From: Spirochaetaceae bacterium
GTDB lineage: Bacteria; Spirochaetota; Spirochaetia; DSM-2461
Assembly: GCA_051531975.1 (NCBI GenBank)
Contig: JAOPTT010000006.1
Location: 128,656-192,655, forward strand
Direction of reading: 5' to 3'
Length of the DNA: 64,000 nucleotides
Numbering within the stretch: the first letter of the stretch is position 1; each line of letters opens with the position of its first letter. The translations under genes and the position numbers were made by a program. The notes under the pieces were generated by a model that did not search any database, was not told the origin of the DNA, and was given only the letters and a program-made list of their open reading frames with translations. Positions 23,585 through 54,015 of this stretch are shown here, piece after piece.

Positions 23585-23679
23585 ATTTGAAACTTGTTTT
23601 GTAAGTTGTATAATTTTTTGATTAATGAAATATTTCTATATTAAAATTTCTAGTGAATTAGGGGAATTCCAAAGGGCAG

Positions 23680-23898
23680 CTTTTTGTTCTTGTCATTGAA
23701 ATAACTTTTATATTTCTGATTTTCTTGTCAGATTAAAGCAATCCTTGGAATAATTGGTTTCCAGTTGATAAGATAAAAAAGAGTGAACTCGATTAGATAA
23801 AATAGTGATTTAAGAAGTAGCATATTTATAGAATCGGCATATTACAATATCTGTGGAATTACTGAAATACTTTTTGGCGGTAATTTATTGTCAGTACG
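23680..23898 (-). mobile_element. Degenerate copy of the 5' end of the IS-like element at 24457-25570
   Basis: Aligns by eye to about 25349-25570 (agaagtagcatatt.atagaatcggcatatta...gaaata.ttttt...ggtaatt). Confidence 0.75.
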
Positions 23899-23982
23899 CC
23901 AACCACATTATCTGTCTATAGAAATCTTTCATCATTTCAAATTTTTAGTGAAGTCTTTTTACACTATAAATAGTAATTTCGC

Positions 23983-24165
23983 CATTCCATATGCGCTAAT
24001 TGAATTCAGTATCCCTGAATCACTAGTAAAAAACCACTTTTAAATCTGATATTTTTGATCTTTAGTCAGTCCTGTATGATAATAGACTATATCATCCCGT
24101 CCGGTTCTATTAACAAGGAAATTATTGGTTAGCTTTGTACTTACTCTACAGCAGTGGAAAATTAT
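23983..24165 (-). pseudogene. Fragment of a RecQ-like helicase C-terminal domain
   Basis: Manual translation IIFHCCRVSTKLT...DDIVYYHTGLTKDQKYQI*KWFFTSDSGILNSISAYGM resembles RecQ YHAGL...ATxAxGMG; internal stop. Confidence 0.6.
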
Positions 24166-24456
24166 AGAATGAGTTCGAACCCTATTTATCACACTTAACA
24201 GTGCCTCCTGTTTGTTTTATTTATTGCAGGCATTACAGAGTAAAAAATATTAGTTCTATACCCGTAGTAACAATTTAATAAGGTAAAACTAATTCAGATT
24301 AAAAATACTGTATCTTGATGGTATTTCTGGATTTAAAGAAAATTGAGTCGTTAATTTATCTGCATATCTATTGACGATATCCGTTAAATTGAAGATTCCT
24401 ACAAATATTTGAAAACATTTATCCCATGGTTAATGTAGAAATATTACCATATAAAC

Positions 24457-25570
24457 TCAGCTGGCTCTGTAATAATGATTGTGCAATCCGTAGAGGACCG
24501 GCTTCTTCTTCACTTTACCGGAGATATCAGGAGGTCTACCTTCTGGGATTGCTCCAAGACCTTGATGTGGGCGATATTGATTATAATATTCCATGTAGGA
24601 ATTTATGATATTCCTCAACTGCTTCTTTGAGAAGATGATAAACCAAACTAAACATTCCTGTCTTACAGATCTGAAAAATATCTCGGCATATGCATTGAGA
24701 TTGGGAGAGTAGGGAGTGGTTGCAACTCCATTGATTTCGTATACCTTATATGGGAAGTGTTTAAGTTCACCAGAGTTATCATGAATCAAATATGAGTAAG
24801 GATAAAGCTCTTCAAAATAAGAAAACTGACTTCTCAGGAACTTTATATTCGGATTCCGGGTGATATTATAATGAACAATATTCCTGCTCTTGAGTTCTAT
24901 AATGAAGAAGACATAGAATCTTTTAAACCCAAAGATATCAACAGTAAAGAAGTCACAAGCGAATATAGAGTGCCAATGAGATTTAAAAAAACCTGCTACA
25001 TGAATAATTGGGATTGATGTCTCCAGATTTACGGAAATCCTGAATGACTTTCCTGATTGTCTCTCTGGATATATCGATAGAAATCTTCTCTAACTCATCT
25101 TGGATGCGCATACAGCCCCAAAGATAGTTTTCAATCTTTAATTTATTAATGAGGAGTTTCATTGCTTTTGAAATAGGAGGTCTGCCGCTTTTTCTGGTTT
25201 TAGGTTTATTATAAGTCCAGTAATCTTTGATAGTTTTTTTCATTTGTAAAGAATTGTCTCTTGAGTTACAAGTGTGAATGTTCTTGTTTTTGGATTGCTG
25301 ATGAACATTGAACGGACAAACCATTTCTCTTGAATGGAGAAGGTGAGATTTATGTTCTTCTCATCAAAGTACCGTTTATATCTCTGGTTCTCTTGCCAGA
25401 TTAGAGAAATTTTAGGAATAATAGATTTTCTGTTGATGATGTAGAAGATGGAGAATTCAAGTAGTTGAAGCAATGATTTTAGAAGTAGCATATTCATAGA
25501 ATCGGCATATTAAAAGGGGGTCTGTGAAATTGTTGAAATATTTTTTGTCGGTAATTAGTTGGTAGAACGG
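24457..25570 (-). mobile_element. Frameshifted integrase-core (rve/DDE) transposase pseudogene with its 5' end
   Basis: Three ORF pieces: GRPPIS...ENYLWG..RIQDEL, then ACDFFTVD..KRFYVFFIIEL in the gap, then HDNSG..SPNLNAYAE..YYNQYRPHQGL; at least two frameshifts, one at a T7 run near 24985. Confidence 0.88.
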
Positions 25571-25796
25571 GAGTAGTACGTGAAAATCTAAAAAGCCATA
25601 GCACGGGCTTAATGCCTATATCAGTAATAAAAATTTATACTTCTTATTGTGGATGTATTTTCTTCTTATCCACTGTAAGTTTTTTTGGGATTAGTATTCT
25701 CTATTGACATCAATAATAATAAAACCTATCATTTTGGTAGGAATTAAAATATCTATTTTAGTAGGAATTGAAATATCTATTTTATAAGGAGCTTGT

Positions 25797-26787: not shown

Positions 26788-26927
26788 ATGACGATGTATA
26801 AGAGGGTAAACTCAAGTAATTTAAGAAATTATTTTTGAAGTAGGATATTTATAGAATCGGCAAGTTAAAATGTCTCTAAAATTACTGAAATATTTTATGA
26901 CCGTAATTTATTGTCAGTTCGGGACTA
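26788..26927 (-). mobile_element. Third degenerate copy of the IS-like 5' end
   Basis: gaagtaggatatttatagaatcggcaagtta...attactgaaatatttt...taatttattgtcagttcggga matches the 23806-23898 and 25474-25571 copies. Confidence 0.75.
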
Positions 26928-27099: not shown

Positions 27100-27437
27100 C
27101 AGTTGGGGGAATTCCACTATTGGGCAAGAGATTGGTGTTTATTATATTAGAATTGAATACCCGAAAGATTGATAAGTGGAGTTTAACTGAAAATCAAAAT
27201 AGGGAGTTCGTCAGACAACAAATAATTTATTTCGCATATGAATATAAGGAATCTAAAACTCTTATATATGATAAAGCTCCGTAATTTACATCAATCGACT
27301 ATTCTGATTATTGAATTACATGAGTAAATATTTCTCTCGCTTCACCGAACATGAATGCATTTGTAGAAATATTGAACGTAACTATTAGAAGAGAAGCTCT
27401 CGATCATTTTCTCCAGTTTTCTGAAAAGAAAGTTAGA
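27100..27437 (+). pseudogene. Decayed integrase-core transposase fragment (opposite orientation)
   Basis: Manual translation SPNMNAFVEILNVTIRREALDHFLQFSEKKVR, plus RLVFIILELNTRKI upstream; several stops. Confidence 0.75.
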
Positions 27438-27649
27438 TGTAAATCTATGATATATCACCTAAACCAGAAGAGATTCGTGACTATAAAAAATGGACTAAAG
27501 AGTTAATTAAAATCATGTTTAAAGATGATTATATTAAAGATATATTTTAATATTAGACACATTAATCGGGTGTCTTTTTTTTAAAACCATTTGATTTACA
27601 TAAAAAGACACAATATAATATATATATATATAAAGAAAACGAGGGGTTT

Positions 27650-27979: not shown

Positions 27980-28283
27980 GTCCAAAATATATAAAAAACG
28001 TACTATAAAATCTCATTATTACTTTTTATTTACACAAGATAACTTTAGATAACAACAAGAAAGCATAGTTATTGAAAAGGTGATTGTTATGATTATTGAA
28101 GAGTATATGGTCTTGGGTTATTTTTTACATCTGCCATCAAAACATAGACTTTTTCTAATATACAGATATATAAATTATGTTCATATTCCTTCGCTCATTA
28201 CTTAATACAATATTCAAGATAATTTTCAATATGCTGTACCTACCACTTAATCCAATGATTTTGATTTATTAAATCTTTAATAA

Positions 28284-29189
28284 TTAGTGAAGGGCATAAT
28301 ATTCCATTTTTTGGTACTTCTATCATGAACAGCTAAAAGTTTATCAGTTTCATGTTTAGATTCAATAATTCCAGACCTCTTAAAAGAAGAATCTTTAGAA
28401 ACCACAAGAATATGGTATTTAGCAGGCAGACTAGAAAATGAGTCTGTGTTTATTAGAAAATCACCAATAAGAAAACCTCACCATGCAGCATCATTAGAAG
28501 GTTTAGTTGGTGGTGGTAAACATCATCAGCCAGGTGAAATATCTTTAGCACATAACTGTTACCTATTTTTAGATGAAATCACAAAGTTTAAATCTTCCAT
28601 AATTCAAAGTCTAAAATAACCTATGGAGGAGAGAAGGGTATCTTTAAATAGAGCCACAGTTTCAACTTGGTACCCTGCAAACTTCAGACTAATAGCAACA
28701 GCAAACCCATGCCCTTGTGCAAACTTAGGTAAAGAAGATGGTATCTGCTTGTGTTCCGAAAAGGAGATTAGACGTCATTGGAAACGAATGGGTGGAGCTA
28801 TAATGGATAGAATTGTTATTAGACTTCCTGTAACACCTGTTTTTACAAAAGTCATGATTGGGCAGAAAGGGGCAAATTCTAAGGATATAAAGGCGAAGGT
28901 TGATATTGCTGTTAACAGTCAAAGATCATGATATAAAGACTCTTTAATAACCTGGAATGCCATAATACCATCTGGTGAAATTGATAAGTTTTGTTATCTA
29001 TCTGAAGAATTAAAACAGATGTTTATTAAAGGTGTTAATTCACTATCCTTATCATCTAGAGGTTGCCACTCAGTACTTAAATGTAGAACCATAGCTGATT
29101 TAGATGAATCCATAAACATAACATAAAAACATATATTAGAGGCATTTACATATAGAAGGTATGGAGATGAGGATTATTATTTTAATTAG
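28284..29189 (+). pseudogene. comM: comM 3'-half copy 1 (matches comM about 22680-23584)
   Basis: Collinear from the GHNIL motif to YRRYGDEDYYFN*; Walker A scrambled; several in-frame stops. Confidence 0.95.
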
Positions 29190-29382: not shown

Positions 29383-30360
29383 ATGAATGTTAATAATAGA
29401 ATTAACATGTATTTTGTTACATTTCTTATAGTATTTTTCTTAATTGGATGTGTTGGAACTCCTTCTGTTGAAAAAGAACAAAGGCTTGCTTTTAATGGTT
29501 CTACTATAAATAATAGATTAACATTAGAGGGTAAAAGCATTACTTTACCCGAGGATTGGTCTTTTGTTCATAATATAGATAAAGAGGGGACTCTATTTAA
29601 TTTTCGTTCACCTGAAGGTATCGAGGGAGGACTTGAATATATCTCTTTTGATTATGAAATAGATATTGAAGAGCTAAATGACTTTTACAAAGACTTTGTA
29701 TTTCAATCTGATGAAAGAATTCATGTTAGTAAAATTGAACATGATAAATTGGGTAGTGTTACTAGCTTTACGGGTATTGCTAATAATCGAAATATTTATA
29801 CTCTTTTATTAAGTGAAGGAAGCAATGTTACTTTTATATATTTCTCTAGTTCCGAAGACTTTCCTATAACAACTCAAGAAATATCAATAATCCTAGATAC
29901 ATATTCCATTGAAGATAGGAGTTGGATGTCCGTACGAGAAAAACCGGGTATGCCATTATTTTCCAGTGTTGATAATACCTGGATTTGGTATAATGATTTT
30001 AAAGATGGATTTTACATAGCTAAAGATATAGAAGATGCTTATGGAGATATTATTGCTGGGATATGGTCGTTAACAACTTTAGAACTTGATGAACTTAAAA
30101 ACAGAGATGAATTTAATATACAACCCTTTACATATAACTTTACGATTCAAAATAAAGATATTCTTTGTACTGTTTATGGGCAAAAAAGTAGTTCTGATGA
30201 TTCTTCTTTGTATATCATCTTCGAACTAAACGGTACTACATATTGTCTTAATTTGATGCAGAATGTTATTGAAGCTGATATCAATCCTAGTACATTATTA
30301 GTAAAACTGAATATACAAGAACTATTTGACTATTATTTACTATTTTCTGAGGGTATATAA
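29383..30360 (+). CDS. Hypothetical lipoprotein
   Basis: Lipobox LIGC; 325-aa ORF; AGGTGG RBS. Confidence 0.75.
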   Translation: MNVNNRINMYFVTFLIVFFLIGCVGTPSVEKEQRLAFNGSTINNRLTLEGKSITLPEDWSFVHNIDKEGTLFNFRSPEGIEGGLEYISFDYEIDIEELNDFYKDFVFQSDERIHVSKIEHDKLGSVTSFTGIANNRNIYTLLLSEGSNVTFIYFSSSEDFPITTQEISIILDTYSIEDRSWMSVREKPGMPLFSSVDNTWIWYNDFKDGFYIAKDIEDAYGDIIAGIWSLTTLELDELKNRDEFNIQPFTYNFTIQNKDILCTVYGQKSSSDDSSLYIIFELNGTTYCLNLMQNVIEADINPSTLLVKLNIQELFDYYLLFSEGI

Positions 30361-30361
30361 A

Positions 30362-31951
30362 ATGAAAAAATTATTAGTTCTTATTACCTTTTATATATAT
30401 GTTTTTACTATTTTTTCAGAATCTAAACCTATAGTACAGATTGATCCTATAGTTAATATGTCAGAAGAAGATTGGTTAGAAGCTCTGTGCATTAAAACAG
30501 CCAATTCAGTTAGTTTAACGCTTAAACTACTGGGTAGGTTTGATGTTTCTATGGACATTCCAGATGAAATAGAACTGATAGATATAGATGTACTTAGAAT
30601 TAGAGCTGAAACAGAAGGTTATGATAATATCATTTTTGGATCCTGCTCTTTTATTGATGGTAACTATATAATATCCATGAACGCCTATGATAGAGCTTTA
30701 AATAAAATAACATACTCAAATTCAACAACAGTAGAATCTATTTTTGATACACTAGATGCAATTGATCAGATAATAGATAAGACTGTAGAAGGCTTTTCTG
30801 GAATACATGTTACATATGGAAGCCTTAAACTAATACCTCCTACTACAGGTGAACCTATTAGTTTTACAATCGATAATGTTGCTCTACCAACTGGTGTATT
30901 TACAATTGAGAAGATACCATCTGGTGTTCATCAGGTGGCTGTTACCCAAAATAGACCTTTGGGATTGCATGTCGCAACTCATGATATTGTTATAGACGAA
31001 AAAATTAATAATCAAATACCAATACCAATTACACTAATTACTAAAGAAGAATCTATTATATTTAATAATGCAGACAATAATCTAAGAAATGCAACATTAG
31101 AAGAAAATATTAATTCTACTTCAATATTTGAAGATATTAACATTCTCACATCGTCAACTTTTTTTAAAGAGTTCCGTCCAGACATAGTTTATAAATATGA
31201 GAAATGGAAATCCTTAATAAATGATATAAAGGATTATAGTAATCAAACAGATAAAAATATAAGAAAAAGAGGTTCAAATTCAATTTGGAATAAGCAGGCT
31301 AATCCTATTGTAGATAACATTGTCGTTAGTTTAACGTCTCAATTCGAAATTAAACCAGATAGAAAGTTACTAAAAAAAGTTAATAAGATACTACCTGATT
31401 TTAAGACTATAACTATTGATGGTAAGGCTGATGATTGGGAGGATGTTACTTCTGGTTACTTAGATCCTATTGGAGACTCCAATTTAACCTCGTTTAAATC
31501 AAAAAAAGGTAGTGATATTATTGAAGTAAAGTATGCGATAGATACAAAATATTTATATATAATGTTGCGGTCAGCAGATGAACAGTATATAAATCAAGGC
31601 TTAGTACATACTTTAGGACTTTATGGAAAAAAATCTACATATTATAACTATCACTTATACAGAGAAGACAATCTTTGGGTTGGAATATCAAACATCAATG
31701 AACGAGATTTTGTTTCGTGGGATACTATGGAAACAAAATTAAAGTTTAGGAAAGGTGAAATATTTGAAACAGCTATACATTTAAATACATTAATAGAATC
31801 TTCGGCTTTTAGTACTGAAATGAGATCATATATAGGTATGCACTTCGATAATATAAATGATAATAAATGGGAGCTAGTTGATGAAATAAATACGAAACAT
31901 AAAATAGTTTTTCCATTAGTTGAATTGTTAATAAAGAAAGAAAATAAATAA
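30362..31951 (+). CDS. Hypothetical secreted protein (TolB-N/PEGA-like region, possible carbohydrate-binding C-terminal domain)
   Basis: Signal peptide; ITIDGKADDWE...DPIGD motif. Confidence 0.65.
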   Translation: MKKLLVLITFYIYVFTIFSESKPIVQIDPIVNMSEEDWLEALCIKTANSVSLTLKLLGRFDVSMDIPDEIELIDIDVLRIRAETEGYDNIIFGSCSFIDGNYIISMNAYDRALNKITYSNSTTVESIFDTLDAIDQIIDKTVEGFSGIHVTYGSLKLIPPTTGEPISFTIDNVALPTGVFTIEKIPSGVHQVAVTQNRPLGLHVATHDIVIDEKINNQIPIPITLITKEESIIFNNADNNLRNATLEENINSTSIFEDINILTSSTFFKEFRPDIVYKYEKWKSLINDIKDYSNQTDKNIRKRGSNSIWNKQANPIVDNIVVSLTSQFEIKPDRKLLKKVNKILPDFKTITIDGKADDWEDVTSGYLDPIGDSNLTSFKSKKGSDIIEVKYAIDTKYLYIMLRSADEQYINQGLVHTLGLYGKKSTYYNYHLYREDNLWVGISNINERDFVSWDTMETKLKFRKGEIFETAIHLNTLIESSAFSTEMRSYIGMHFDNINDNKWELVDEINTKHKIVFPLVELLIKKENK

Positions 31952-31963
31952 TAGAAATATTTA

Positions 31964-31999
31964 GCATAATATTTTTGGTACTGATTATGTTAGAATTCA
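31964..31999 (+). repeat. Short remnant of the comM-copy 5' junction
   Basis: gcataatatttttggtactgattatgttagaattca versus cataatattcttattttggtacttctatcgtgtttagattca at 39182. Confidence 0.45.
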
Positions 32000-32297
32000 G
32001 TTTATATTTTCTATATATACAACTTTTAAATCAAATAAAGCTATAGTCAATTGATTTAATTTGTTGTTAAGTGGAATTCTAGAATATGATATATTTAATA
32101 CTATTAGAATTGAACATCCTATGCATTTCTATATTAAACTAACTCAATAATAGATATTAAACTAAGGATTACAACTTATGAAATTATCTCTGAGAATTTG
32201 ATTATGGAAATCTTTCACTTTTAGTTTCATAAGCAATATTAACTACAGGACAAATTAAAAATATTGTATAATACTATTTTTGTTCTATAATTTAATT

Positions 32298-32714
32298 ATG
32301 AAAAAAATATATGTCATATTATTAGTTTTTTTATTTTGTCAATTATGGGGGCAAGATTTTACAGGAACTTGGAAATCAGATACTTTTGAGTATAATTATA
32401 ATGGTGCTGATGATATTCTGTATACCGAAGTTATTTACACTGAAAGCACTTTTATCTCAACAAATTATTACTCAGAAAAAGAAGGTATTCAGTTTAAAAT
32501 CTGGGGTATTGTTGAGATTATTGATATAGATTCTTTAATATTAACAACTAATAAGTATATGGATCAAAAAACAGGTGAAGAAATATCCATAGAAAATGGT
32601 CAGGTTAGATATATAAATTATATAATTAAAGAAGATATTCTTACCTATGAAAAAAGAGATAAAAATCAAAATGAATTTGGTGATTTTTTTCTTGAATTTA
32701 AAAAATTAAAATAG
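32298..32714 (+). CDS. Hypothetical secreted lipocalin-like protein
   Basis: Signal peptide followed by DFTGTWKS motif. Confidence 0.65.
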   Translation: MKKIYVILLVFLFCQLWGQDFTGTWKSDTFEYNYNGADDILYTEVIYTESTFISTNYYSEKEGIQFKIWGIVEIIDIDSLILTTNKYMDQKTGEEISIENGQVRYINYIIKEDILTYEKRDKNQNEFGDFFLEFKKLK

Positions 32715-32760
32715 GTTAAAGATATAAAAACTTAAACTATAAATTGTTATTTACGGCATC

Positions 32761-32930
32761 ACCCACGACAGGTTTGGGACATTTTTAGTTTAGTAATATA
32801 TCCTTGTTCAACAAATGATGAAACGCCACTAATCATTTATCGATGTAATTTTATAATTGTGTAAATATATCTTAATTCTATAGAGAACATAATATCCTAT
32901 ATTTTGATACTCCTATCGACTACAGCTAAT
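32761..32930 (+). repeat. Leader plus comM-junction repeat unit (homologous to 39073-39210; leader part also at 60997-61080)
   Basis: CAGGTTTGGGACA at 32769 and 39085; acataatatcctatattttgatactcctatcgactacagctaat matches copy 1 at 33/44 nt. Confidence 0.75.
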
Positions 32931-33169
32931 GTAACATATATTATTAGGTGTACCAAAAGAGAGTCTGGGTGAATGTGGAAATATTACCTCATACAATATT
33001 AAGTATGCTTTAAGAACTCGTCATTCAAAAGTATCTAGTTCATTACACATAAATTAGTCATGAATATTTTAGTTTATATTGTATACATAGTATTAAATAA
33101 AGCAAAATTTTCAATTTGTACAAAATCCAACTTTCGTACTGCCAATATATTTAAAACGTACCTCGCGTT

Positions 33170-33274
33170 TCAATTCATTAATAAGATAATAACCGTTTGT
33201 GACATTACAATTAAAATAACGATTCCAGCCGAAATGAATAGAACCTTTCCATTGGCGACACTCATGTAGTCCAT
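33170..33274 (-). pseudogene. Truncated 5' stub of a membrane protein gene (DUF5058-like)
   Basis: AGAGGA RBS, then MDYMSVANGKVLFISAGIVILIVMSQTVIILLMN*, directly after the kinase stop; family assignment from recall. Confidence 0.45.
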
Positions 33275-33290
33275 TTTTTATTCCTCTGTT

Positions 33291-36200
33291 TTATATACTA
33301 TTTAAAATCTCTTCTAATATCATTTTTGCTTCTTTCATTTTGTATTTACTAAGAAATTTTAACGCCTCTTCTATTTTTGAATGTGATAGTTTCTCTAATA
33401 TCTCTACTGCTGGTTTAGGTTTTCTTTTTTCAAGGAATCCTATAGCCGATTGTAAACTCTCTTTTAGCTCATCATCAGTTATATTTTTTACCTCTGCAGA
33501 CACTTCGACTTCAGTTGATATATTCTCATTTACACCATTTATCATCTGATTTAATACTGGCAGTATTGTTTTAAGTGCCTGTAACCAATCGCCGTCTTCT
33601 TTAAACTCTTTTTCTAACACTGCAGAGAGTTTCTGAAGCTCTTCTCCACCAAGGTTGGCACTTACTCCTTTTATTGTATGAGCAGCTCTTATAGCTTCTT
33701 CTCTGTTTTCTTTGTCCGTAATAGCTTTTATATCATTTTCAAACTCTTTATAGTCTGTTGCGAACTGTTTCAGAAGTTTTTTATATAACTTTCTATTACC
33801 ACCAACTCGATTTAAGCCCTGTTCTGTATCTATTTTAGGTAAAACAAGATCTTCTTCTTTGTCATTATTAGAACTCTCGATATTTTCTGTATAATAATCA
33901 GGAATGATTCTCTTTTTAGGTTTTATCCAGGCAGCTAGTGTATTCCATAATTCAGTGGTATTAATTGGTTTAGTAATGTAGTCATTCATCCCTACTTCTA
34001 TAACTTTATCCCTAACACCGGTCATTGCGTCGGCAGTCATGGCAATAATTGGCAGCCTATCTTGTGTAAAAGTTTTTCTAATAAGCTCTGTTGATTCATA
34101 ACCACCCATTACTGGCATTTGAAGATCCATAAGCACTAATTCATAGTCACCTTCTAAAGCCATATTCGCTCCGATCTGACCATTATCTGCGATATCGATA
34201 TAGAAGCCCTCTTGTTCAATTAATTCTTTTGCTACCTGTTGGTTTATATCATTATCTTCAACGAGCAGAATCTTTGCACCTCTAATATCATCAAAGTTTT
34301 CTGGTTTCTCATCTTTTTTATAATCATTGGTCAAAAGATTTGTAGACTTACCAAATACATTCATTATAGTATCAAGTAACATTGACGGACTAACTGGTTT
34401 AACAAGGAAGCCTTGTAGACCAATATCTTGTGCTTCGTGAATTATCTCTTCACGGCCAAAACTGGTCACCATTACTATCTGAGGAATTTCTACATTTTCT
34501 AACTCTGTTTTTATCTTTTTAGAAGCTTCGATACCATTCATTCCTGGCATCTGGTAATCCATTAAAACTAAGTCATAAACTCTGCTACCCTCTGCCTTAG
34601 ATTTAATTATCTCCCTAAGGGCTAAGTCCCCGGACTCAACACCGGTAACTTCAAAATTCATCTCTTTTAGATAGATTCCTAGAACCTCTCGTGATGTCTC
34701 ATTGTCATCTACAACAAGAACTTTTAATCCCTTTAACTCGACCGGGGTCGCTTTTACCTCTTTTTTCTCACCAATTTCTAGTAGTGCTGTGAAATAGAAG
34801 GTACTCCCTTCTCCATGTTCACTGTTTACCCCAATTTCTCCTCCCATCATCTCTGATAGTCGTTTACTAATGGTAAGTCCTAAGCCTGTTCCTCCATATT
34901 TTCTTGTTGTAGAGGAGTCGGCCTGGGAGAATGATGTAAATAGTTTATTTATCTGTTCCCCAGTTAATCCGATACCTGTATCCCTAACTTCAAATCGTAA
35001 CATAACACTGTTCTCAACCTGTTTTACTAGTTTCGTTGCAACTTCAATCTCACCACTTTCAGTGAACTTAACCGCATTGTTAGACAGGTTAAGAAGAATT
35101 TGCCCTAATCTTAATGGATCACCTATAAGATCGTTTGGTATTGCTGACTCTTGGTTGAAGATCAGCTCTACACCCTTAGAGCTAGCTTTATCCCCAATCA
35201 TATCTGCTAGTGAAGACATTACACTATTTAGAAAAAAAGGGATCTTCTCTATATCTAGTTTACCTGCTTCAATCTTAGAAAAATCTAAAATATCATTGAT
35301 AATACCTAATAAGTTTTTAGCTGCCCCATTTATCTTTTCAGCATAATCTTTCTGCTTTCTATTTAGTTCCGTTTTAAGTAATAAGTGGTCTAAACCTAAT
35401 ATCGCATTCATTGGTGTTCTTATCTCATGACTCATATTAGCTAAAAAGTCACTTTTGGCACGGGTAGCAGCTTCTGCTTCATCTTTTGCTAGCTCTAATC
35501 CCTGTTGTGCTAGGACTTGCTCACTTACATCAATAAATGTTCCCATTTCTTGTAGTGCTGTACCATCTTTATTCTTTTTTGTTACATCACAACGGAGACC
35601 TACAAAACGAACTTCGCCATTGCTTTTAATTACAGGGTATGTAGCACTATAACTATCAATTTCTCCTGTAATAGATGCTGAAAACTTAGTTAAAATATCA
35701 TCAACCATAACTTGATATTCAGGGGTTAGTTTTGCTACATCTTGCATTAAACCAGCCCATTTACTTATGTTATATGTACCTTCAGGATTTATCGGAAACT
35801 CTAACATCTCTGCTACATTGTCAGTGGCATGAAAAGTATCTTCTTCGTTAAAATTTATCCACCAAACACCCACTTCTGAAGCTTTAAGTGAACCGTAAAC
35901 AAGTTGATTTAGTAGGTTTAGACTGTTTTCTCGTTCTTTATCCTCCGTAATATTCTTGTTTATTCCCATCATAGTCTTTGGGCTTCCATCACTATTTCTT
36001 TCTACTATTTGACCATCACCTGACATCCATATATATTTCTCATCAGAAGGATGCCTATATCGAAAAATAGAGTGATATTTATCTACTTTTCCTTCTAAAT
36101 GATCTGTGAGTGCTTTAAATGCCTCTTCTTTATCTTCAGGGTGTAGCCGTTCCCCCCATGTTTTGGCAACATTCTCTTCTGTTGGATCAAAGCCAAATAA

Positions 36201-38852
36201 CTTTAGGTACAAAGGAGAGCCTATGGTTCTATCAGTTGCTACGTCCCACTCCCATGTTGCAAGTCCAGCACCCTCTGTTGTTATTTTAAATCGTTCATCA
36301 CTTCTTTCTAACTCTTTAGTTCTAGCTTTTACATTCTCTTCTAAAATTTTTCTCTGCTTATATAAGGTTTTTGTACGATTATTTAGAATTAATAATATTA
36401 ATCCTATAACTAATATTATATATAGTGATATTGCCCACCATCTAAACCAAGGAGGATTCTCTACATGGATTAATAAAGATACTTCCTGTTTAGGTAGACT
36501 CCATATCCCATCATTATTTGTACCTCGAACTCTAAGTGTATAAGTCCCCCCAGGTAGCCCTGTATATGAACCAAAACGACGAGTTCCAGCCTTATACCAC
36601 TCTCTATCATAACCTTCCAGTTTATATTCAAATCTGTTTTTTTTAGAGAATAGGTAGTTCAGAGCGGTATACTCAAACTCTATTGAACGATCTCGCCAAC
36701 CAAGGCTTATTTCATCTAAATGTTCAAATGATTTATCTGTCTTTATGATCTCTCCACTCTGTTTTATAGCAGTAATATAGATGTTAGGTGATAGGTCATT
36801 TGATGTTAATTCCTCTGGGATAAAACGGTTTAAGCCGTTATAACCACCAAACCATAAAGCACCATCATCGGATTTTCCTCTGGCGGTAGCAAAAAAGTCA
36901 TGGCTATGTAGACCATCCTCCTTTGTGTATACTTTAAGAACTTCTTCAGTCTCTATGTCTATAGAAACCAAACCAATATCAGTTCCTAACCAGATTCTTC
37001 TACTTCTATCTTCTAAAATATTGTGTACTATTGTTGCTTTAAAACCACGTTCTGATCCAATTCTGTCAAAGGTTCCTGTTTTTTTATCAAAAAGGTGTAG
37101 CCCACGGTCTGTTGATACCCAGAACTTACCAGTAGAGTCCTCTAGAACATCGTAAACAGTATTTGAACTGATTGATTTAGAGTCTGATGGATTGTGTTGG
37201 AAGTGAGTAAAAGTTGATGTAGTTTGGTTAAACTTCTCTAATCCTCCTCCCCAGGTTGCAATCCATAAAATGTTTTTATCATCCTTATCTCTAATCATTC
37301 TAATTGAAGTTACTGCTGCAAAGCTTTCTGGGTTATTAGGGTCGTGTTCAAAAACCTCTCTCTCCATAGTTTTTAGGTTCAGTCTATGTAGACTTTGTTC
37401 CCAACCTACAGCCCATATAACATCGGGGTTTTTATGATCTTCAATCATGGTGTAGTACCAGGTATCATCGGTATACTGTCTGATCACTTCTCTTTTATTA
37501 GAGTCCCAGGTAACTAACCCCCCTGCAGTAGATATAAAAAAATCACCCTTACTACTTTCGTAAAAACCAGATGAATATCCGTGGGGAAGTGTTTTAGGAT
37601 TAGCTGAATCACTTTTATGATGGGTAAAGCTACCATCAGCAGGGTTATATAGGTCTAAACCTTCACCAAAGTTACCAATCCATACATTCTTATTTGTGTC
37701 TTGGTAAATAGGCAACGGTGAATTACTTGCAATTGAATTTGGGTTACTGAGGCTATGGGTAAAGAGTTCAAAGTTATGCCCTCTTGGATCAAACTTATCG
37801 ACTTTTCCGTTGGTATGAACAATCCAAAGAGTTCCATCTCGGTCTTCAAAAGCACCAGTAATGGTGTCAGTGGTGAGTATTGGATCTTTACCTATTTCAT
37901 TTATATACTGCTTAAAAGTTTCACTTATAGGATCAAAGATTATAACTCCATAGGATGAAGCATCACTTAACAGTATAATATTTCCATTTTTTAACTGGTA
38001 GATGTCACCAATACGTATATTTGGTATAGATTTTTGGTCTAATGGGTCATGTTTTACAATAGAGAATAAACTACTTTGTTTGTCCATACGAATAAGGCCA
38101 TCGTTTAGAGATGCAAACCAAATATTCCCATTGGTATCTTCAAATACTGCTCTAATGCTATTTTGGGGAAAGCTGTTAGGATCTTCAGGATTATTAATAT
38201 AACGAGTTACCTCACCTGTTTCAGGATCTAATCTATTTACACCACTCTCTTTTGTACCTATCCATATAAAACCTTCACTGTCTTCAAACAGGCAGAAGAT
38301 ATTGTTCTCTGAGATTGAATTTGGGTCATTAGAGTTGTGAAAGTAGTTTGTAAACTCCCCATTAAAGTACATAGAGAGGCCAGTTTGTGTTCCAAACCAC
38401 ATACGACCTCTTTTATCTTGAATAATACATTTTGATGAGAAGTTGAAAACATTTCCTGCTAAGGTTGTAGTAGTGTTTTCAGGATCCCCATAAAACTTTT
38501 TAATACTGTTTGTTTTTTTGTTGTAAATATTTAATCCGTAGTTTGTTCCTACCCAGATTTTACCATCATCATCTTCAAACAGTTGTGTAACAAAATCGTT
38601 ACTAATACCATTTTCTCCGGCTTTTATCGGTTTTGTTTCTGCACCATCGAATCTAACCATTCCATTAAAGAATGAACTAAACCAGAGAAAGCCATCTTGG
38701 TCTTGTATTACAGAATAACAGATCTGACCTCCAATATCGAAGGTGTAATCAAATGATGGGTTGATATCTTCCTGTATTCCGAAGAGCGTTATAGATATGT
38801 TAAGTAAGAATATAACAAAGAATATATTTGAGATAAAAATACGATTTTTCAT
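33291..38852 (-). CDS. Giant hybrid sensor kinase: beta-propeller/YYY sensor, TM, PAS, HisKA, HATPase, two REC, HPt
   Basis: ED..G.IWIGT repeats, YTGLPGGTYTLRVRGTNNDG, FLANMSHEIRTPMN, GGTGLGL, LMDYQMP, LMDLQMP, AHTIKGVSANLG. Confidence 0.93.
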   Translation of the reverse strand: MKNRIFISNIFFVIFLLNISITLFGIQEDINPSFDYTFDIGGQICYSVIQDQDGFLWFSSFFNGMVRFDGAETKPIKAGENGISNDFVTQLFEDDDGKIWVGTNYGLNIYNKKTNSIKKFYGDPENTTTTLAGNVFNFSSKCIIQDKRGRMWFGTQTGLSMYFNGEFTNYFHNSNDPNSISENNIFCLFEDSEGFIWIGTKESGVNRLDPETGEVTRYINNPEDPNSFPQNSIRAVFEDTNGNIWFASLNDGLIRMDKQSSLFSIVKHDPLDQKSIPNIRIGDIYQLKNGNIILLSDASSYGVIIFDPISETFKQYINEIGKDPILTTDTITGAFEDRDGTLWIVHTNGKVDKFDPRGHNFELFTHSLSNPNSIASNSPLPIYQDTNKNVWIGNFGEGLDLYNPADGSFTHHKSDSANPKTLPHGYSSGFYESSKGDFFISTAGGLVTWDSNKREVIRQYTDDTWYYTMIEDHKNPDVIWAVGWEQSLHRLNLKTMEREVFEHDPNNPESFAAVTSIRMIRDKDDKNILWIATWGGGLEKFNQTTSTFTHFQHNPSDSKSISSNTVYDVLEDSTGKFWVSTDRGLHLFDKKTGTFDRIGSERGFKATIVHNILEDRSRRIWLGTDIGLVSIDIETEEVLKVYTKEDGLHSHDFFATARGKSDDGALWFGGYNGLNRFIPEELTSNDLSPNIYITAIKQSGEIIKTDKSFEHLDEISLGWRDRSIEFEYTALNYLFSKKNRFEYKLEGYDREWYKAGTRRFGSYTGLPGGTYTLRVRGTNNDGIWSLPKQEVSLLIHVENPPWFRWWAISLYIILVIGLILLILNNRTKTLYKQRKILEENVKARTKELERSDERFKITTEGAGLATWEWDVATDRTIGSPLYLKLFGFDPTEENVAKTWGERLHPEDKEEAFKALTDHLEGKVDKYHSIFRYRHPSDEKYIWMSGDGQIVERNSDGSPKTMMGINKNITEDKERENSLNLLNQLVYGSLKASEVGVWWINFNEEDTFHATDNVAEMLEFPINPEGTYNISKWAGLMQDVAKLTPEYQVMVDDILTKFSASITGEIDSYSATYPVIKSNGEVRFVGLRCDVTKKNKDGTALQEMGTFIDVSEQVLAQQGLELAKDEAEAATRAKSDFLANMSHEIRTPMNAILGLDHLLLKTELNRKQKDYAEKINGAAKNLLGIINDILDFSKIEAGKLDIEKIPFFLNSVMSSLADMIGDKASSKGVELIFNQESAIPNDLIGDPLRLGQILLNLSNNAVKFTESGEIEVATKLVKQVENSVMLRFEVRDTGIGLTGEQINKLFTSFSQADSSTTRKYGGTGLGLTISKRLSEMMGGEIGVNSEHGEGSTFYFTALLEIGEKKEVKATPVELKGLKVLVVDDNETSREVLGIYLKEMNFEVTGVESGDLALREIIKSKAEGSRVYDLVLMDYQMPGMNGIEASKKIKTELENVEIPQIVMVTSFGREEIIHEAQDIGLQGFLVKPVSPSMLLDTIMNVFGKSTNLLTNDYKKDEKPENFDDIRGAKILLVEDNDINQQVAKELIEQEGFYIDIADNGQIGANMALEGDYELVLMDLQMPVMGGYESTELIRKTFTQDRLPIIAMTADAMTGVRDKVIEVGMNDYITKPINTTELWNTLAAWIKPKKRIIPDYYTENIESSNNDKEEDLVLPKIDTEQGLNRVGGNRKLYKKLLKQFATDYKEFENDIKAITDKENREEAIRAAHTIKGVSANLGGEELQKLSAVLEKEFKEDGDWLQALKTILPVLNQMINGVNENISTEVEVSAEVKNITDDELKESLQSAIGFLEKRKPKPAVEILEKLSHSKIEEALKFLSKYKMKEAKMILEEILNSI

Positions 38853-39176
38853 AATTTAATTATATCTTTTAATCAGTTAAATACAAGTTGTTTTTAGGAG
38901 TCCATGTTATAACACGTGCAGCAATATCGAATTTATATTCTAATTACTAATTTGTAATATATTTACTTACATAAACTATTATATATGCTTTCGTATTGTG
39001 GTAATTACTCTACATTATAAATTTTATTATAGAAATCTTTCATCTTTAAAACTATACATAGTGATTTACTCCATACCGTTACTTCAGGTTTGGGACAATT
39101 TAATCTAGAAAAGTTTCACCATTAAAATGGTATAGTTGTAGTAATTTTGATTGTGATAATATTAAAATTTTAAATA

Positions 39177-39860
39177 AGGGACATAATATTCTTATTTTGG
39201 TACTTCTATCGTGTTTAGATTCAATAATTCCAGACCTCTTAAAAGAGGAATCTTTAGAAACCACAAGAATATGGTCTTTAGCTGGAAGACTAGAAAATGA
39301 ATCAGTATTTATTAGAAAACCTCCAATAAGAAAACCTCACCATGGAGCATCATTAGAAGGTTTAGTAGGTGGAGGGAAACATCATCAGCCAGGTGAAATA
39401 TCATTAGCTCATAACGGTTACCTGTTTCTAGATGAAATAGCAGAGTTTAAAACTTCCATAATTCAAAGTCTAAGGCAACCAATGGAGGAGTGAAGAGTAT
39501 CACTAAATAGAGCAAAAGTATCTACCTGGTAACCTGCAAACTTTAGGTTAATAGCAACTGCAAACCCATGTCCATTTGCAAACCTAGGTAAAGAAGATGG
39601 TATCTGTATGTGCTTAGAAAAGAGATTAGATGGTACTGGAGACGAATTGTGGAGTAATTATGGATAGGATAGATATTATGGTTCCTGTTACTCCTGTTTT
39701 AACTAAAGTTATGCTAGAGGATTAAGGTGCTAATTCTAAGGATATATAGATGAAGGTTGATATTGCTGTTAATAGACAAAGAACACGATATAAAGACTCT
39801 TCAATAACTTGTAATGCCAGAATACCATCTGGAGAAATTGATAAGTTCTGTTATCTATCT
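39177..39860 (+). pseudogene. comM: comM 3'-half copy 2 (comM about 22688-23395; Walker A partly deleted, 3' truncated)
   Basis: 94 codons identical in protein to comM, followed by stops and frameshifts; similarity ends at tgttatctatct (39860). Confidence 0.95.
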
Positions 39861-40294
39861 CAATAGTATGTGACATATTATGCGTAGTTTAAAAATAATA
39901 TAACACATAGATTAGCAACAATCCCCACGAGGTTAAATTTCGGTCGATTTTTGTATAATTATTGACAACCATGTAAAATAGGATTCATAATCACACTATA
40001 CATGTTAATATTTGTCCTGAATTTGAACACTACTCAAAAATAGATTAAAGCACATTTCTGTAGTAACAATTCTTGGCCCGTGACAATGTGACAAATGAAT
40101 GATTACCACAATGTTTTTAGAGAAACAGTGCAATAATCTTGCATTAGATTTTAAGTGGCTGGAGTTTTTTTTTAGAAAATATTGCAGTTCTGATATAGAA
40201 TATTGATAGAGTATTTAAGAAAAAGAATTTATTGGCTTTAAAGCCGATAGCTATACAAAGCTATAAATTATCCCCCAGAGAAAATGGAGACGAT

Positions 40295-42529
40295 ATGAAC
40301 AGAATAAAAAGCATTTTATTGATATCAGTAATATTATTGATAACACTATTAAGTAGTTGTGCCACTGTCGAGGTTCGTGCAGCAAAGAAAGGGGATATAG
40401 AATCCCTTAAGAAATTTATTGATAAAGGCGGCGACGTTAATGAGCCAGAAAAGGGTGGAACAACCCTACTCATGTATGCTTCAGAAGCCGGTCAGACTCA
40501 AGTCATCAGTTTTTTACTGGATAAAGGGGCAATTATCAGTCTCAAAGATAACAACGGACGAAGCGCATTTATTTATGCAGTCATAGCCCGAAAACAGGGC
40601 GCTGCCCAGCTGCTTCTACAGAGAGGTGCTGATGTAAACATAGTTCTCTCTTCAGGTGATTCTGCCCTAACTCTTACGGCTCAATCTCAGAATCAGAATA
40701 TGATAAAAATACTTCTAGAAAACGGAGCTGACCTGAATCATAAGAATTATGGTGGATGGTCTGCACTGACTCTCAGTCTCAGCAAGGATGCTCAAGGGCC
40801 TACAGGGATAAATAAGGCCAGCACTATTCTGATAGACCTGAATGCCGATCTGGACCCTGATTCTGGGAATGTTCGTATAGTGGCCTTTTCAGCAGCCTCA
40901 TCGGGAAATAAAGACGTCCTTAAATATCTGCTGGATCTAGGATTAGATCTTGAAAGTAAGTCCGATAAAGGGGCGACCCTTCTACTAACTGCTGTTTTAG
41001 CACAGAAAATCGAAATGGTACGTTATCTCCTGAATCTTGGAGCCGACTGGTCTGTAAAGGATTCATCAGGATGGTCAATCCTTATGAAATCCCTGTATGA
41101 CAGTGCTTCTAAAGGTAAAGGGCTGGATACAATTGCAAAACTTCTTATGGATAAAGGTGCCCGTCCGGAAGGCTCTTCACCACATGGTGTAACCACAGGA
41201 TACAAGGCTGGAGAGAAAGGGGCAGTAGAGATACTGAGCCTTCTCATTGATAACGGACTCTCTCCTAATATCAAGGATTCATCGGGATGGTCAATTCTTA
41301 TGAAATCCCTATATGACAGTGCTTCCAATGGTAATGGGCCAGATACAATTGCAAAACTTCTTATGGATAAAGGCGCCCATCCGGAAGGCTCCTCTCCACA
41401 GGGTGTAACTACAGGATACAAGGCTGGAGAGAAAGGGGCAGTAGAGATACTGAACCTTCTCATTAATAACGGACTCTCTCCTTATATCAAGGATGCAAAA
41501 GGCAATAGCCTTCTAATTATTGGTATTGCACATACAAAGATTGTCAAGCTGCTGATTTCCTTGGGTGTTCCTGTAGATGGTAGAAACGAGCAGAGATATA
41601 CTCCTTTGATTATGGCTGCAGCCGGTGGCTATAGAGATTCACTTTCTCTCCTCTTGCGGGCAGGTGCAGAACCGGACCTCAGGGATAACAATCGCCAGAC
41701 AGCTCTGTTATATGCAGCCGGAACCTCAGATGTTGAAATGGTTCGTAAACTGCTGATTGCGGGAGCTTCTCCCCATACCACCGATAAAACAGGTAATACA
41801 GCTCTACATAAAGCAGCAGCTAAAGGTGTTCCAGAAACAGTTCGCCTGTTACTGACATCTGGAACCTATGTGGATTCTGCAAATGCTCAGGGAGATACAC
41901 CCTATGTTCTAACTTATAAAAACAAGAAACAAGGTTCTAGCATAAGAGAAATACTGGCAATAGGGGGTGCAAAGGTTCCTGTAGAAAAGCCGACAATCGT
42001 AGAAAAACCGACAATCGTAGAAAAACCGACAATCGTAGAAAAACCGATAATCGTAGAAAAACCGATAATCGTAGAAAAACCGATAATCGTAGAAAAACCG
42101 ATAATCGTAGAAGTGCCGACAATCGTAGAAGTACCGACACCTAAACCACAGCCTGCTTCACCAGTAGAGCCTGAAGCTGGCACACAACCTGACCTAACAG
42201 TCCGATTCGGTTGGCCTTCTATCAACCCTTCAGACATAAGAGGCTGGAATAACAGTGATAAGATGATTGGAACAGCTACACTACAGATCGGCTACAGTTC
42301 AGAATCATCATGGTTTTACGAGCACACAATGGATATTCCAAGAAAAGGTGTAAATGCCGACAGCTATGAAGCAAATCTTGATTTTGGAAATAGAACCTTA
42401 GACCCCTGTAAAGCAGTTTTAACTATTCCTACCAAGAAAGGAAATGCCCTAGTATGTGAAATCACAGTTCAACCTGACCTGGATGGTAGAATGATTCTGT
42501 ATTTTGAAGATTTCATATATAAAAAATAG
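40295..42529 (+). CDS. Ankyrin-repeat lipoprotein
   Basis: Lipobox LSSC; many G.T.L..A....G....V..LL..GA repeats; Pro-rich linker; ATG 40295 with GGAGA RBS. Confidence 0.92.
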   Translation: MNRIKSILLISVILLITLLSSCATVEVRAAKKGDIESLKKFIDKGGDVNEPEKGGTTLLMYASEAGQTQVISFLLDKGAIISLKDNNGRSAFIYAVIARKQGAAQLLLQRGADVNIVLSSGDSALTLTAQSQNQNMIKILLENGADLNHKNYGGWSALTLSLSKDAQGPTGINKASTILIDLNADLDPDSGNVRIVAFSAASSGNKDVLKYLLDLGLDLESKSDKGATLLLTAVLAQKIEMVRYLLNLGADWSVKDSSGWSILMKSLYDSASKGKGLDTIAKLLMDKGARPEGSSPHGVTTGYKAGEKGAVEILSLLIDNGLSPNIKDSSGWSILMKSLYDSASNGNGPDTIAKLLMDKGAHPEGSSPQGVTTGYKAGEKGAVEILNLLINNGLSPYIKDAKGNSLLIIGIAHTKIVKLLISLGVPVDGRNEQRYTPLIMAAAGGYRDSLSLLLRAGAEPDLRDNNRQTALLYAAGTSDVEMVRKLLIAGASPHTTDKTGNTALHKAAAKGVPETVRLLLTSGTYVDSANAQGDTPYVLTYKNKKQGSSIREILAIGGAKVPVEKPTIVEKPTIVEKPTIVEKPIIVEKPIIVEKPIIVEKPIIVEVPTIVEVPTPKPQPASPVEPEAGTQPDLTVRFGWPSINPSDIRGWNNSDKMIGTATLQIGYSSESSWFYEHTMDIPRKGVNADSYEANLDFGNRTLDPCKAVLTIPTKKGNALVCEITVQPDLDGRMILYFEDFIYKK
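41057..41488 (+). repeat. Recent 216-bp tandem duplication inside the ankyrin gene
   Basis: 41057-41272 and 41273-41488 are near-identical (KDSSGWSILMKSLYDSAS...NGLSP). Confidence 0.92.
41981..42139 (+). repeat. 18-bp tandem repeat (VEKPTI/VEKPII, about 9 units)
   Basis: gtagaaaaaccga[c/t]aatc units. Confidence 0.95.
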
Positions 42530-42760: not shown

Positions 42761-42855
42761 GAATATCGTCACTAGTAGGCAGACTAGAAAATGAATAAGT
42801 ATTTATTAGAAAACCACCCCAAACACACACCATGGATCTTCATTAGGAGGTTTAG
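42761..42855 (+). pseudogene. comM: comM copy 3, left piece (comM about 22800-22897)
   Basis: gaatatcgtcactagtaggcagactagaaaatgaataagtatttattagaaaacc...catggatcttcattaggaggtttag. Confidence 0.88.
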
Positions 42856-42867
42856 AATAATAGATAT

Positions 42868-43725
42868 TTAATACTCATCAAGAAAGCTATGCTTCTCCTT
42901 ATTTTTTGTCCAGCCAATTATTGCATCGGTAAATATATTTTTACTGGACATAAATATACTTTTATCAACATCCTGAAATGTTTCTCCAAGTTTTTTAATT
43001 AGATCTTTAACCTCACGTCTTTTACTAGATGTTTTTTTAGCGGCTACAATACAACCACAATTCATGGCATTTAGTCCATTTTCAGATGTGAACTCTTTTA
43101 TATCGTCCTCTCTAACATAATATAGTGGTCTAATTAACTCCATATTCTCAAAATTAGTTGATTTTAATTTAGGCATCATTGTTTGATATTTACCAGAGCA
43201 TAGAACATTCATCATTATTGTCTCTATTACATCGTCATAGTGGTGACCTAATGCGACTTTGTTACATCCTAACTCCTCTGCCATAGCGTAGAGTGCTCCC
43301 CGCCTCATTCTTGCACATAGGTAACATGGATAGTCATTTGCTATTTTATCTACTACCTTAAATACATCTCTATCGAATATTTTTAAATCGATATCTAAGT
43401 GTTTGCAGTTACTCTTTAGTTGATTCTTATTAGCTTCATTAAAACCAGGATCCATAGAGATAAAGTGAAGGTCAAACTTAAAAGGACCGTGTTTTTGAAG
43501 TTCTTGAAATAGTTTTGCCATTAATAGACTGTCTTTCCCACCGGAAATTGCAACAGCTATTGAATCTCCTTCGTTTACAAGTCCAAACTCTTTAATACCC
43601 TTTATAAAAGGGGTCCATAGAGTTTTTCTCATAGTAGTAATTAGACATTTCTCTATATCTTTAACTGATTGTAGAGCATTTTTAGGTATTATTAACTCAC
43701 AACCACTTCCTGAAACTCCTGACAT
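42868..43725 (-). CDS. ttcA: TtcA-like tRNA 2-thiocytidine biosynthesis protein (PP-loop)
   Basis: SGGKDS, CYLCARMRRG, ALGHHYDD, LIRPL; GGAGGA RBS before ATG 43725. Confidence 0.85.
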   Translation of the reverse strand: MSGVSGSGCELIIPKNALQSVKDIEKCLITTMRKTLWTPFIKGIKEFGLVNEGDSIAVAISGGKDSLLMAKLFQELQKHGPFKFDLHFISMDPGFNEANKNQLKSNCKHLDIDLKIFDRDVFKVVDKIANDYPCYLCARMRRGALYAMAEELGCNKVALGHHYDDVIETIMMNVLCSGKYQTMMPKLKSTNFENMELIRPLYYVREDDIKEFTSENGLNAMNCGCIVAAKKTSSKRREVKDLIKKLGETFQDVDKSIFMSSKNIFTDAIIGWTKNKEKHSFLDEY

Positions 43726-43920
43726 TATCATCCTCCGTTTGTAGGATATTATTTAGGAAATTGGTAATGAAATCAAGATAATATACACTAATATTGATAG
43801 TATAATTATTTCTATAATTTGTAATCCTTAATTTAAGGGATTGAAGATCCTGAGAATTTAAAGTTGAACACATATAAAATATATATGAAGGGAATGGTAA
43901 AGCTCTGAAAAAGTTTTAGA

Positions 43921-44607
43921 TTTAGTTGGAGGAGGTAAACATCATCTATCAGGAGATATCTCTCTAGTTCATAATGGTTATATGTTCATAGATGAAATAG
44001 CTGAGTTTAAAACTTCTATAATACAAAGTTTAAGAAAGCCAATGGAGGAGAGAGTGGTATCTTTGAATAGGGCAAATGTTTCAGCTTGGTATTCTGTAAA
44101 TTTTAGACTAATAACAACAACTAACCCATGCTCATGTGTAAACTTAGGTAAAGAAGATGGTATTTGTATGTGCTCTTAAAAAGAGATTAAACGATATTGG
44201 AAACGAATAGGTTTCGCAATTATAGATTGGATTGAAATAAGGGTTTCTGTGTTTCCTATTCAACTAAAGTAATGCTTGGGATAATGGTGCTAATTCAAGG
44301 GATATTAAGATGAAGTTTTATCTTGCTGTTAATAGACAAAGAAAACGATATAAAGACTTATTAATCTCCTGTAATGCTAAGAATATCATCTATTGAAATT
44401 GATAAGTTTTGCTACCTATCTGAAGAATTAAAACAGATGTTTATTAAAAGTATTAACTCCTTGTCTTTATCATCAAGAGGTTGTCATTCTGAACTTAAAT
44501 GTAGAACTATTGCTGATTTAGAAAGGTCAGAAAACATAACATAGATACATATAATAGATGCATTTACTTATAGAAGGTATAAAGATGAGGATTATTATTT
44601 TAGTTGA
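43921..44607 (+). pseudogene. comM: comM copy 3, right piece (comM about 22893-23584)
   Basis: Resumes at LVGGGKHH and runs to YRRYKDEDYYFS*; many stops and frameshifts. Confidence 0.93.
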
Positions 44608-53831: not shown

Positions 53832-53909
53832 TATTAACATTCTTTATCACAAAGAGGTTGTCATTTCCTTATAGAATATATGGTGTATGAGGATCATTGT
53901 TTAAGTTGA
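53832..53909 (+). pseudogene. comM: Highly decayed comM 3'-terminal remnant (copy 4)
   Basis: tctttatcacaaagaggttgtcatt joined to cttatagaatatatggtgtatgaggatcattgtttaagttga; matches the comM and copy 3 termini with an internal deletion. Confidence 0.75.
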
Positions 53910-54015
53910 ATTCTTGTGCTTTTACTTAAACATGGTAGCTTTTTAGGATATATCTTGTTTTCTTAGTATTCTTAAATTAAAGTTATAATATAATGATCTT
54001 GAAAGAGGTATAAAG

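Follow-up and report, generated by a model that had tools for sequence, protein, structure and literature searches.

Patchwise renewal of dead comM half-genes behind an intact comM gene in a spirochaete

Behind the intact comM gene of a marine spirochaete lie dead repeats of its 3' half, one of which, copy C, contains 94 codons that encode the same amino acids as the intact gene (copy A) despite 14 silent changes. This tract stems from a functional allele other than copy A and has undergone less than roughly one quarter of the decay seen in the adjoining part. It was probably laid down by a recent homologous overwriting event in an insertion hotspot at comM, whose half-copies recombine. The half-genes are repeated with a fixed junction, originate from functional alleles and have been renewed patchwise. 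Mobile elements often target comM, as described in a review (PMC12378983), and its role as an insertion hotspot is already known; for host-matched half-gene repeats in the absence of an integrase, no description at comM or recQ was found in the literature searched (open articles without supplements).

The comM locus and its half-copies

The spirochaete assembly comprises 5.46 Mb and is 98% complete. In the window, which is the whole stretch of 64,000 nucleotides analysed, the following comM copies were found:

22070..23584, plus strand: copy A, intact comM/yifB (504 aa)
28335..29189, plus strand: copy B, dead comM 3' half, codons 220-504 including the stop
39209..39490, plus strand: clean tract of copy C, codons 225-318
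39491..39867, plus strand: codons 319-444 of copy C, its truncated and decayed part
42761..42855, plus strand: first piece of copy D, codons ~244-276 (nhmmer)
43918..44607, plus strand: second piece of copy D (D2), codons 275-504, the most decayed copy
53852..53912, plus strand: possible remnant E, codons ~461-464 joined to 491-504 (weak; blastn E=4.8e-4, read by eye)

Copy A contains the Pfam domains ChlI, Mg_chelatase and Mg_chelatase_C in this order and belongs to the ComM/YifB family, with 539.8 bits against TIGR00368 (cut-off 362.4). It is the only full-length comM found by a tblastn search of the genome. The nearest named ComM is that of Thiospirochaeta perfilievii (72%), and the nearest intact homologue in the protein collection, in which copy A forms a singleton cluster, has 84% protein identity. 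Intact homologues of comEC and dprA are also encoded, a gene content that would be compatible with natural competence. In two of three genomes of the same genus (the two with a full match), a single comM is directly adjoined by the next gene; here, that gene sits ~126 kb further on. Copy A is followed by the dead 3' halves B, C and D in this order, and perhaps by remnant E near 53.9 kb, which was not recovered by nhmmer in positions 1-160000 of the contig (numbered as in the window). The homology of copies A, B and D is lost in each case at the stop codon. Among 400 genomes of the class, of which the best five candidates per genome were considered, more than two comM matches were seen in this genome only, among the matches listed; 27 picked genomes were rejected as carriers of comM arrays, as their matches were paralogues, frameshifts or contig breaks. 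Two genomes of the family possess ComM-like open reading frames of 241-250 aa adjoining rnhA, in which codons ~230-320 are absent (L003:3289-4041, L004:9526-10251), and a ComM 3'-half reading frame of 274 aa on a 10-kb contig (P0122, 77% identical) may represent a split comM in a relative.

Copy B contains three stops, a 3-bp deletion and about 67-68 silent versus 29 replacement codons. Expected silent changes were derived from a model of a local duplicate, in which the copy decays while the parent acquires silent changes, with the number of replacements set to that observed. Silent codons exceeded this expectation in copy B (~67 versus 16), in codons 319-444 of copy C (22 versus 11) and in D2 (46 versus 24), with P at most 0.001 in each and P=0.001 for copy C. 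Since the excess is found in all three dead copies, these originate from other functional alleles. A silent excess is thus not peculiar to the clean tract of copy C; peculiar is that no decay followed. Copies B (29078-29126) and D (44496-44544) have in common a 3-bp deletion at codons 468-469, the exchange S470C and a stop at codon 484. Between these lesions, B and D differ at six codons and D equals A over 40 bp, so no single tract accounts for the pattern.

The clean tract of copy C

The initial annotation had counted 14 synonymous and no non-synonymous changes in 94 codons, and a codon-by-codon comparison of 39209-39490 with 22742-23023 gave exactly the same numbers. From 39491 onwards, where it had noticed stops and frameshifts, five stops and two single-base deletions are present; codons 319-444 differ from copy A by 21 replacement codons, these stops included, the two deletions and 22 silent codons. 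In a simulation of this decayed part (39491-39867), 1.5 stops were expected among the 21 replacement codons. If changes were neutral and arose at equal rates, the probability that 14 of 14 are silent would be ~1e-9; the Jukes-Cantor dS of the tract is 0.26. Neutral decay of a local duplicate had been expected to give mostly non-synonymous changes, and such an origin is excluded, as 14 silent changes would bring ~30 replacements and none of 3000 simulations reached zero. The absence of replacements beside 14 silent changes implies that the recent source of the tract was a functional allele other than today's copy A, in agreement with the origin first proposed. Across its 218 sites, the tract shows no replacement (95% bound of about 0.014 per site), and the decayed part has 15 private replacements in about 290 sites; the tract has therefore been dead for less than roughly a quarter of the time that its neighbour has.

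As the boundary of the tract had been picked after the fact, a permutation test that leaves the boundary free was applied. The longest run without an amino acid change in copy C covers 94 of 220 codons (P=3e-5); when lesions alone are considered, namely stops, indels and residues absent from 29 close homologues, P is 1.3e-3. The corresponding values for any change and for lesions are 0.14 and 0.25 in copy B and 0.66 and 0.15 in copy D. On average, the 29 homologues have an identity of 0.70 at codons 225-318 and of 0.83 at codons 319-380. Protein constraint does not explain the clean tract, because codons 319-380 are more conserved yet decayed in copy C. It might be argued that one displaced allele decayed evenly and that the tract escaped by chance, given that three copies were examined and that P is 1.3e-3 in the conservative lesion-only test; against the any-change result and a more conserved neighbour with nine replacements and two frameshifts in 62 codons, this has next to no likelihood.

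The 14 silent states of the tract include nine that are common to copy B, one common to copy D and four that are private, and the decayed part contains five private silent changes, clustered in codons 320-330. Four-taxon site patterns (1/2/1, 3/7/0 and 2/2/5) show no clear shift at codon 318, so that the breakpoint is defined by the contrast in decay alone. As to the source of the tract, a displaced former 3' half or DNA from a relative had been suggested. Copy B lies nearer to copy A than copy C does, yet it carries seven lesions, including a stop, in codons 225-318, in which copy C has none; copy D has seven in codons 275-318. A simple order of accretion thus fails and at least one homologous exchange is needed. 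A displaced half on its own in such an order is thereby discarded, whereas either of the two suggested origins as such may apply. No donor of the tract was found in metagenome contigs (74 loci, the best with 68% over 22 residues and the rest with at most 59%), in viral contigs (none of 11 stretches), in phage records (29 matches, all under 60%) or as an allele in the protein collection.

The clean run also coincides with a short open reading frame:

39197..39493, plus strand: 98-aa open reading frame with a TTG start and without Walker A; a singleton in the protein collection

Expression of this frame under purifying selection, for instance as a dominant-negative ComM fragment, with the stop at codon 319 having freed the rest of the copy, would be in line with a clean run that stops exactly at the first stop, with the in-frame TTG and with a nearly equal density of private silent changes on both sides (4 in 94 codons versus ~5-8 in 124, expected decay removed). 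However, stops or frameshifts make up 7 of the 23 changes in copy C, which makes it unremarkable that the first lesion is of this type; the frame is open because of a 27-bp deletion alone, no plus-strand promoter-like site is present upstream in 38850-39200, and the predicted peptide lacks both Walker A and the C-terminal domain and has no relatives in the collection, while the stop and seven lesions of copy B lie in the same codons. The single RNA run compared showed no coverage of this region, which speaks neither for nor against expression. Judged from these sequence features, a functional 98-aa protein is unlikely, with odds only slightly better than those of an error in the assembly. The case also serves as a warning that, in pseudogenes of bacteria, dN/dS can reflect the replacement of an allele rather than hidden function.

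An error of this kind could have threaded the tract in from another strain or swapped it with copy A at common runs of 47-53 bp. A and C indeed have identical runs of 53 and 47 bp, Logan contigs break around copy C with none of those listed spanning 39069-39585, and a contig of depth about 4 with a related comM occurs in the same run. On the other hand, 0.97 of 142 sampled words of 38800-40200 are found in the possible source run, which is not independent support for the tract, and the depth of the region is 44-47 versus about 40 beside it, cross-laid contigs included. Furthermore, the bases of the tract alternate singly between A-like and B-like states, with four private ones, and a swap with copy A would still leave a copy that is clean and then decayed. 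An artefact is therefore given little credence.

Recent overwriting thus stays the preferred reading. Every block acquired at the comM hotspot would have left the gene whole and pushed its 3' half, from the Walker A codon ~220 to the stop, downstream, with the position of the junction probably being fixed by a site-specific element that has since been lost. The half-copies constitute ~0.9-kb direct repeats on which homologous recombination of the host would continue, leading to cargo swaps, deletions between copies and the overwriting of dead copies by functional alleles, with the 282-bp tract as the latest overwriting event in copy C. A conversion-type replacement would start where homology begins and stop at a cluster of mismatches in codons 319-332; such a replacement by DNA of another strain is somewhat favoured over a single crossover that fused a fresh half to an older one. 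The patched copy C suggests that dead comM leftovers still take part in recombination, and a hotspot whose scars recombine could keep gaining and swapping cargo without an integrase.

Junctions, cargo and known elements at comM

Four features mark the ends of the units behind copy A:

28256..28334, plus strand: junction before copy B, 67% like comM codons ~204-219 and 86% like the junction of copy C (65 aligned bases)
39148..39208, plus strand: junction before copy C, in which 27 bp (codons ~216-224) are missing relative to B, between two short repeats
32719..32934, plus strand: junction J, a third motif M plus junction without comM after it, 72% to C over 182 aligned bases
39022..39101, no strand assigned: end motif M, common to a recQ array on contig C12

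Copies B and C start at a common non-comM junction at the Walker A codons, which has a likeness of 62-67% to comM codons ~204-219 and cannot encode Walker A. Copy B rejoins comM at codon 220, and B and J part from the comM-like sequence at codon 219/220. This att-like arm could equally be an older dead edge of comM. The junctions of copy C and J run on into motif M over ~55-80 bp, and with three junction copies the units have kept att-like ends, as is characteristic of CIMEs. Elsewhere, the junction pattern gave three exact matches in unrelated taxa, and only short matches of 22-48 bp in 5 of 37 genomes of the family. Motif M with a J-like flank also occurs at G000:C6:658707-658786, in a large island of phage- or ICE-like genes whose start, near C6:592000, is marked by tmRNA and a tyrosine integrase.

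Between the copies, the following cargo and insertions are located:

24440..25580, minus strand: broken integrase-core (rve_3) transposase (Pfam)
near 23664-23906, 26789-26926 and 27135-27473, no strand assigned: further transposase remnants
29383..38852, no strand assigned: cargo between B and C, three open reading frames without a Pfam match and an 1853-aa hybrid histidine kinase; no recombinase
40232..42529, plus strand: cargo between C and D, ankyrin-repeat protein (Pfam)
42868..43731, minus strand: TtcA-like gene inserted in copy D, below the NCBIfam cut-off

The two-gene cargo after copy B (29383-31951) has relatives of 66-68% identity on contigs C11, C12 and C14, and similar reading frames are found on the same contig at 145034-148032 (numbered as in the window but beyond its end), towards the distal limit of the 126-kb interval. 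The ttcA-like block in copy D (42851-43924) is flanked by 5-bp direct repeats, is devoid of a transposase and has a distant paralogue (35%) on C14. The repeats 23672-23898, 25340-25569 and 26789-26927 were considered as att sites and rejected, as they are 5' remnants of transposases.

Searches of this genome gave no recombinase that targets comM. The Pfam scan of 29 window reading frames revealed no recombinase, and PF07508, the profile of large serine recombinases, had no match in the 98%-complete genome (the control matched in 2 of 14). Two resolvases are encoded on contigs other than that of comM, and no tyrosine recombinase lies within 400 kb of the comM array and no resolvase near it. Tyrosine integrases were rejected as comM integrators because they sit beside tmRNA, beside dprA or on another contig. 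TniQ and the Mu-transposase C-terminal profile likewise gave no match in the genome, although the same profiles matched 0 of 14 controls.

The array might also have arisen purely by site-specific accretion, in which elements brought their own comM 3' half and an integrase, displaced the resident half and lost the integrase in a CIME-like manner, with no later exchange. The common start at Walker A, the end at the stop codon and the att-like junction arm speak for this, and of the large serine recombinases predicted to be site-specific, 12.4% have Mg-chelatase genes as their target (PMC10083194). Moreover, the most distal large copy, D, is the most decayed one, as in streptococcal tandems (PMC7563491), and a foreign recQ 5' half in another genome (see below) indicates that elements may carry such halves. 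Accretion predicts, however, that each copy decays evenly and that B is younger than C, both of which fail, and that repeats match the element, whereas in two related recQ arrays the repeats follow the host. Accretion is already contradicted for copy C and is improbable as the whole explanation; it may have founded the array.

In e14 at icd, SXT at prfC and the dusA islands, the target gene is restored with a replacement end and the displaced piece stays; the replacement pieces are element-derived, measure tens to about 200 bp and adjoin the integrase. The comM array is alike in that the target gene is intact and the displaced piece remains. It resembles the ICE/IME/CIME tandems of Streptococcus, as described in PMC7563491, in having a cargo stack behind an intact target, a lost recombinase and the most decayed unit in the most distal position. 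However, the repeats are ~0.9-kb half-genes here and short att sites there, neither an integrase-bearing ICE or IME in the stack nor a helper element for cis-mobilisation was found, the order of age is broken, repeats are patched by functional alleles and decay does not rise with distance. Large serine recombinase elements at Mg-chelatase/comM genes (PMC10083194), including the sr1WO prophages (PMC9203015), have the target gene and possibly a fixed junction in the ATPase domain with an att-like arm in common with the array. sr1WO splits the gene into two non-overlapping parts (PMC9203015); here, the gene is whole, at least three repeats of its 3' half are present and no PF07508 protein was found in the genome.

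Tn6022/AbaR elements, which carry TnsF, and Tsy elements also target a conserved ATPase motif of comM, with comM fragments flanking the cargo; they are reported to use the Walker B site, to disrupt comM and to encode TnsABC-TniQ-TnsF or YRec-TnsF, with a 5-bp duplication in Tn6022 (PMC10293859, PMC11441513, PMC11014353). Unlike in these elements, the junction lies at Walker A and comM is intact here; no comM split at Walker B is present. Mobile elements in comM are commonly taken to disable transformation, whereas here the gene outlives repeated insertions. In Acinetobacter, recent recombination tracts over comM were described in 35 of 386 genomes, and repair of comM by recombination was considered; they were no more common than expected by chance (PMC11472951). 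With unconventional circularizable structures (UCS), the array shares recombinase-less cargo between long, possibly gene-containing direct repeats, by whose recombination UCS excise (PMC7843796). The differences from UCS as described there are that the repeats are halves of a host chromosomal gene with one base-exact end, match the host allele and are known from sequence alone. The UCS feature of long direct repeats without a recombinase is found in the comM and recQ arrays and in the genomes G280 and G022 described below.

A mirror array at a RecQ-family gene

Matches of motif M led to contig C12, which contains an intact RecQ-family gene (TIGR00614 over the cut-off) with displaced 5' halves before it. 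Four displaced recQ copies were found, two on C12, one on C17 and one in the window, all of which stop at one and the same base of motif V, with motif M adjoining:

about 23911..24216 (23983-24216), minus strand: ectopic displaced recQ fragment R4, which runs to motif V and continues into motif M (comparison with the RecQ-family gene on C12)

Copy R1 is 86% identical overall and matches the intact gene without any difference over a run of 87 bp (shuffle P=2e-4), and R2 has an identical run of 57 bp (P=0.04). Reading frames that appear by eye to be toxin-antitoxin-like, together with an insertion sequence, lie between the recQ 5' halves (G000:C12:131701-148459; loci L089, L095 and L097). Among 2954 reading frames of at least 250 aa, 15 have partial near copies within 60 kb; two or more such copies are found only for comM and the recQ gene, with a cluster of chemoreceptor-like paralogues (by eye) left aside.

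Partial recQ 5' copies on the contig of the intact gene are present in 4 of 37 other genomes of the family. In G140, which belongs to another family, a foreign recQ 5' half (72%) that reaches motif V lies downstream of the intact gene and ends there (L105:6041-7024), which argues that some elements carry a half-gene. It is the one real case among six truncated or doubled recQ matches that were checked, the other five being contig ends or gaps. Closely related cargo without an integrase lies between recQ repeats in two species, G280 (L099:2355-12200) and G022 (L100:2618-11021). A stretch of 3.0 kb of this cargo is 98.5% alike in the two species; elsewhere, windows of 250 bp are 86-99.6% alike, and the likeness extends up to the promoter and first codons of the intact recQ. 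The recQ genes of the two hosts are only ~73% alike, and the repeats of 890 and 926 bp show 3 and 14 mismatches to the recQ of their own host (99.7% and 98.5% identity, respectively); in the alignment, the sequences group by host in 282 columns and by role in 30, a count that includes the flanks. The ~170 bp adjoining the motif V junction differ between G280 and G022, so that copying at insertion and an exchange of cargo within an older repeat that had been homogenised are equally possible.

It is tempting to speculate that integrase-free spirochaete islands enter genes of recombination helicases by copying the half-gene of the host itself, the 3' half of comM from Walker A and the 5' half of the RecQ-family gene as far as motif V; ends-in gap repair with two short homology arms would be one way. 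The gene would stay intact, the ~0.9-kb repeat would match the host at birth, and dead halves would serve as landing pads for functional alleles and cargo, of which the tract would be a snapshot. This idea is tentative and carries much less weight than recent overwriting as such; carrying the recQ results over to comM would rely on the common motif M and the like anatomy. The two-species recQ case nevertheless makes it testable whether the long repeat is copied at insertion or homogenised later. The four proteins scanned in the G280 cargo are a GGDEF/PTS fusion, a radical SAM enzyme, a response regulator and a kinase, with no recombinase among them, and two further reading frames of this cargo appear, by eye, to be IS-like.
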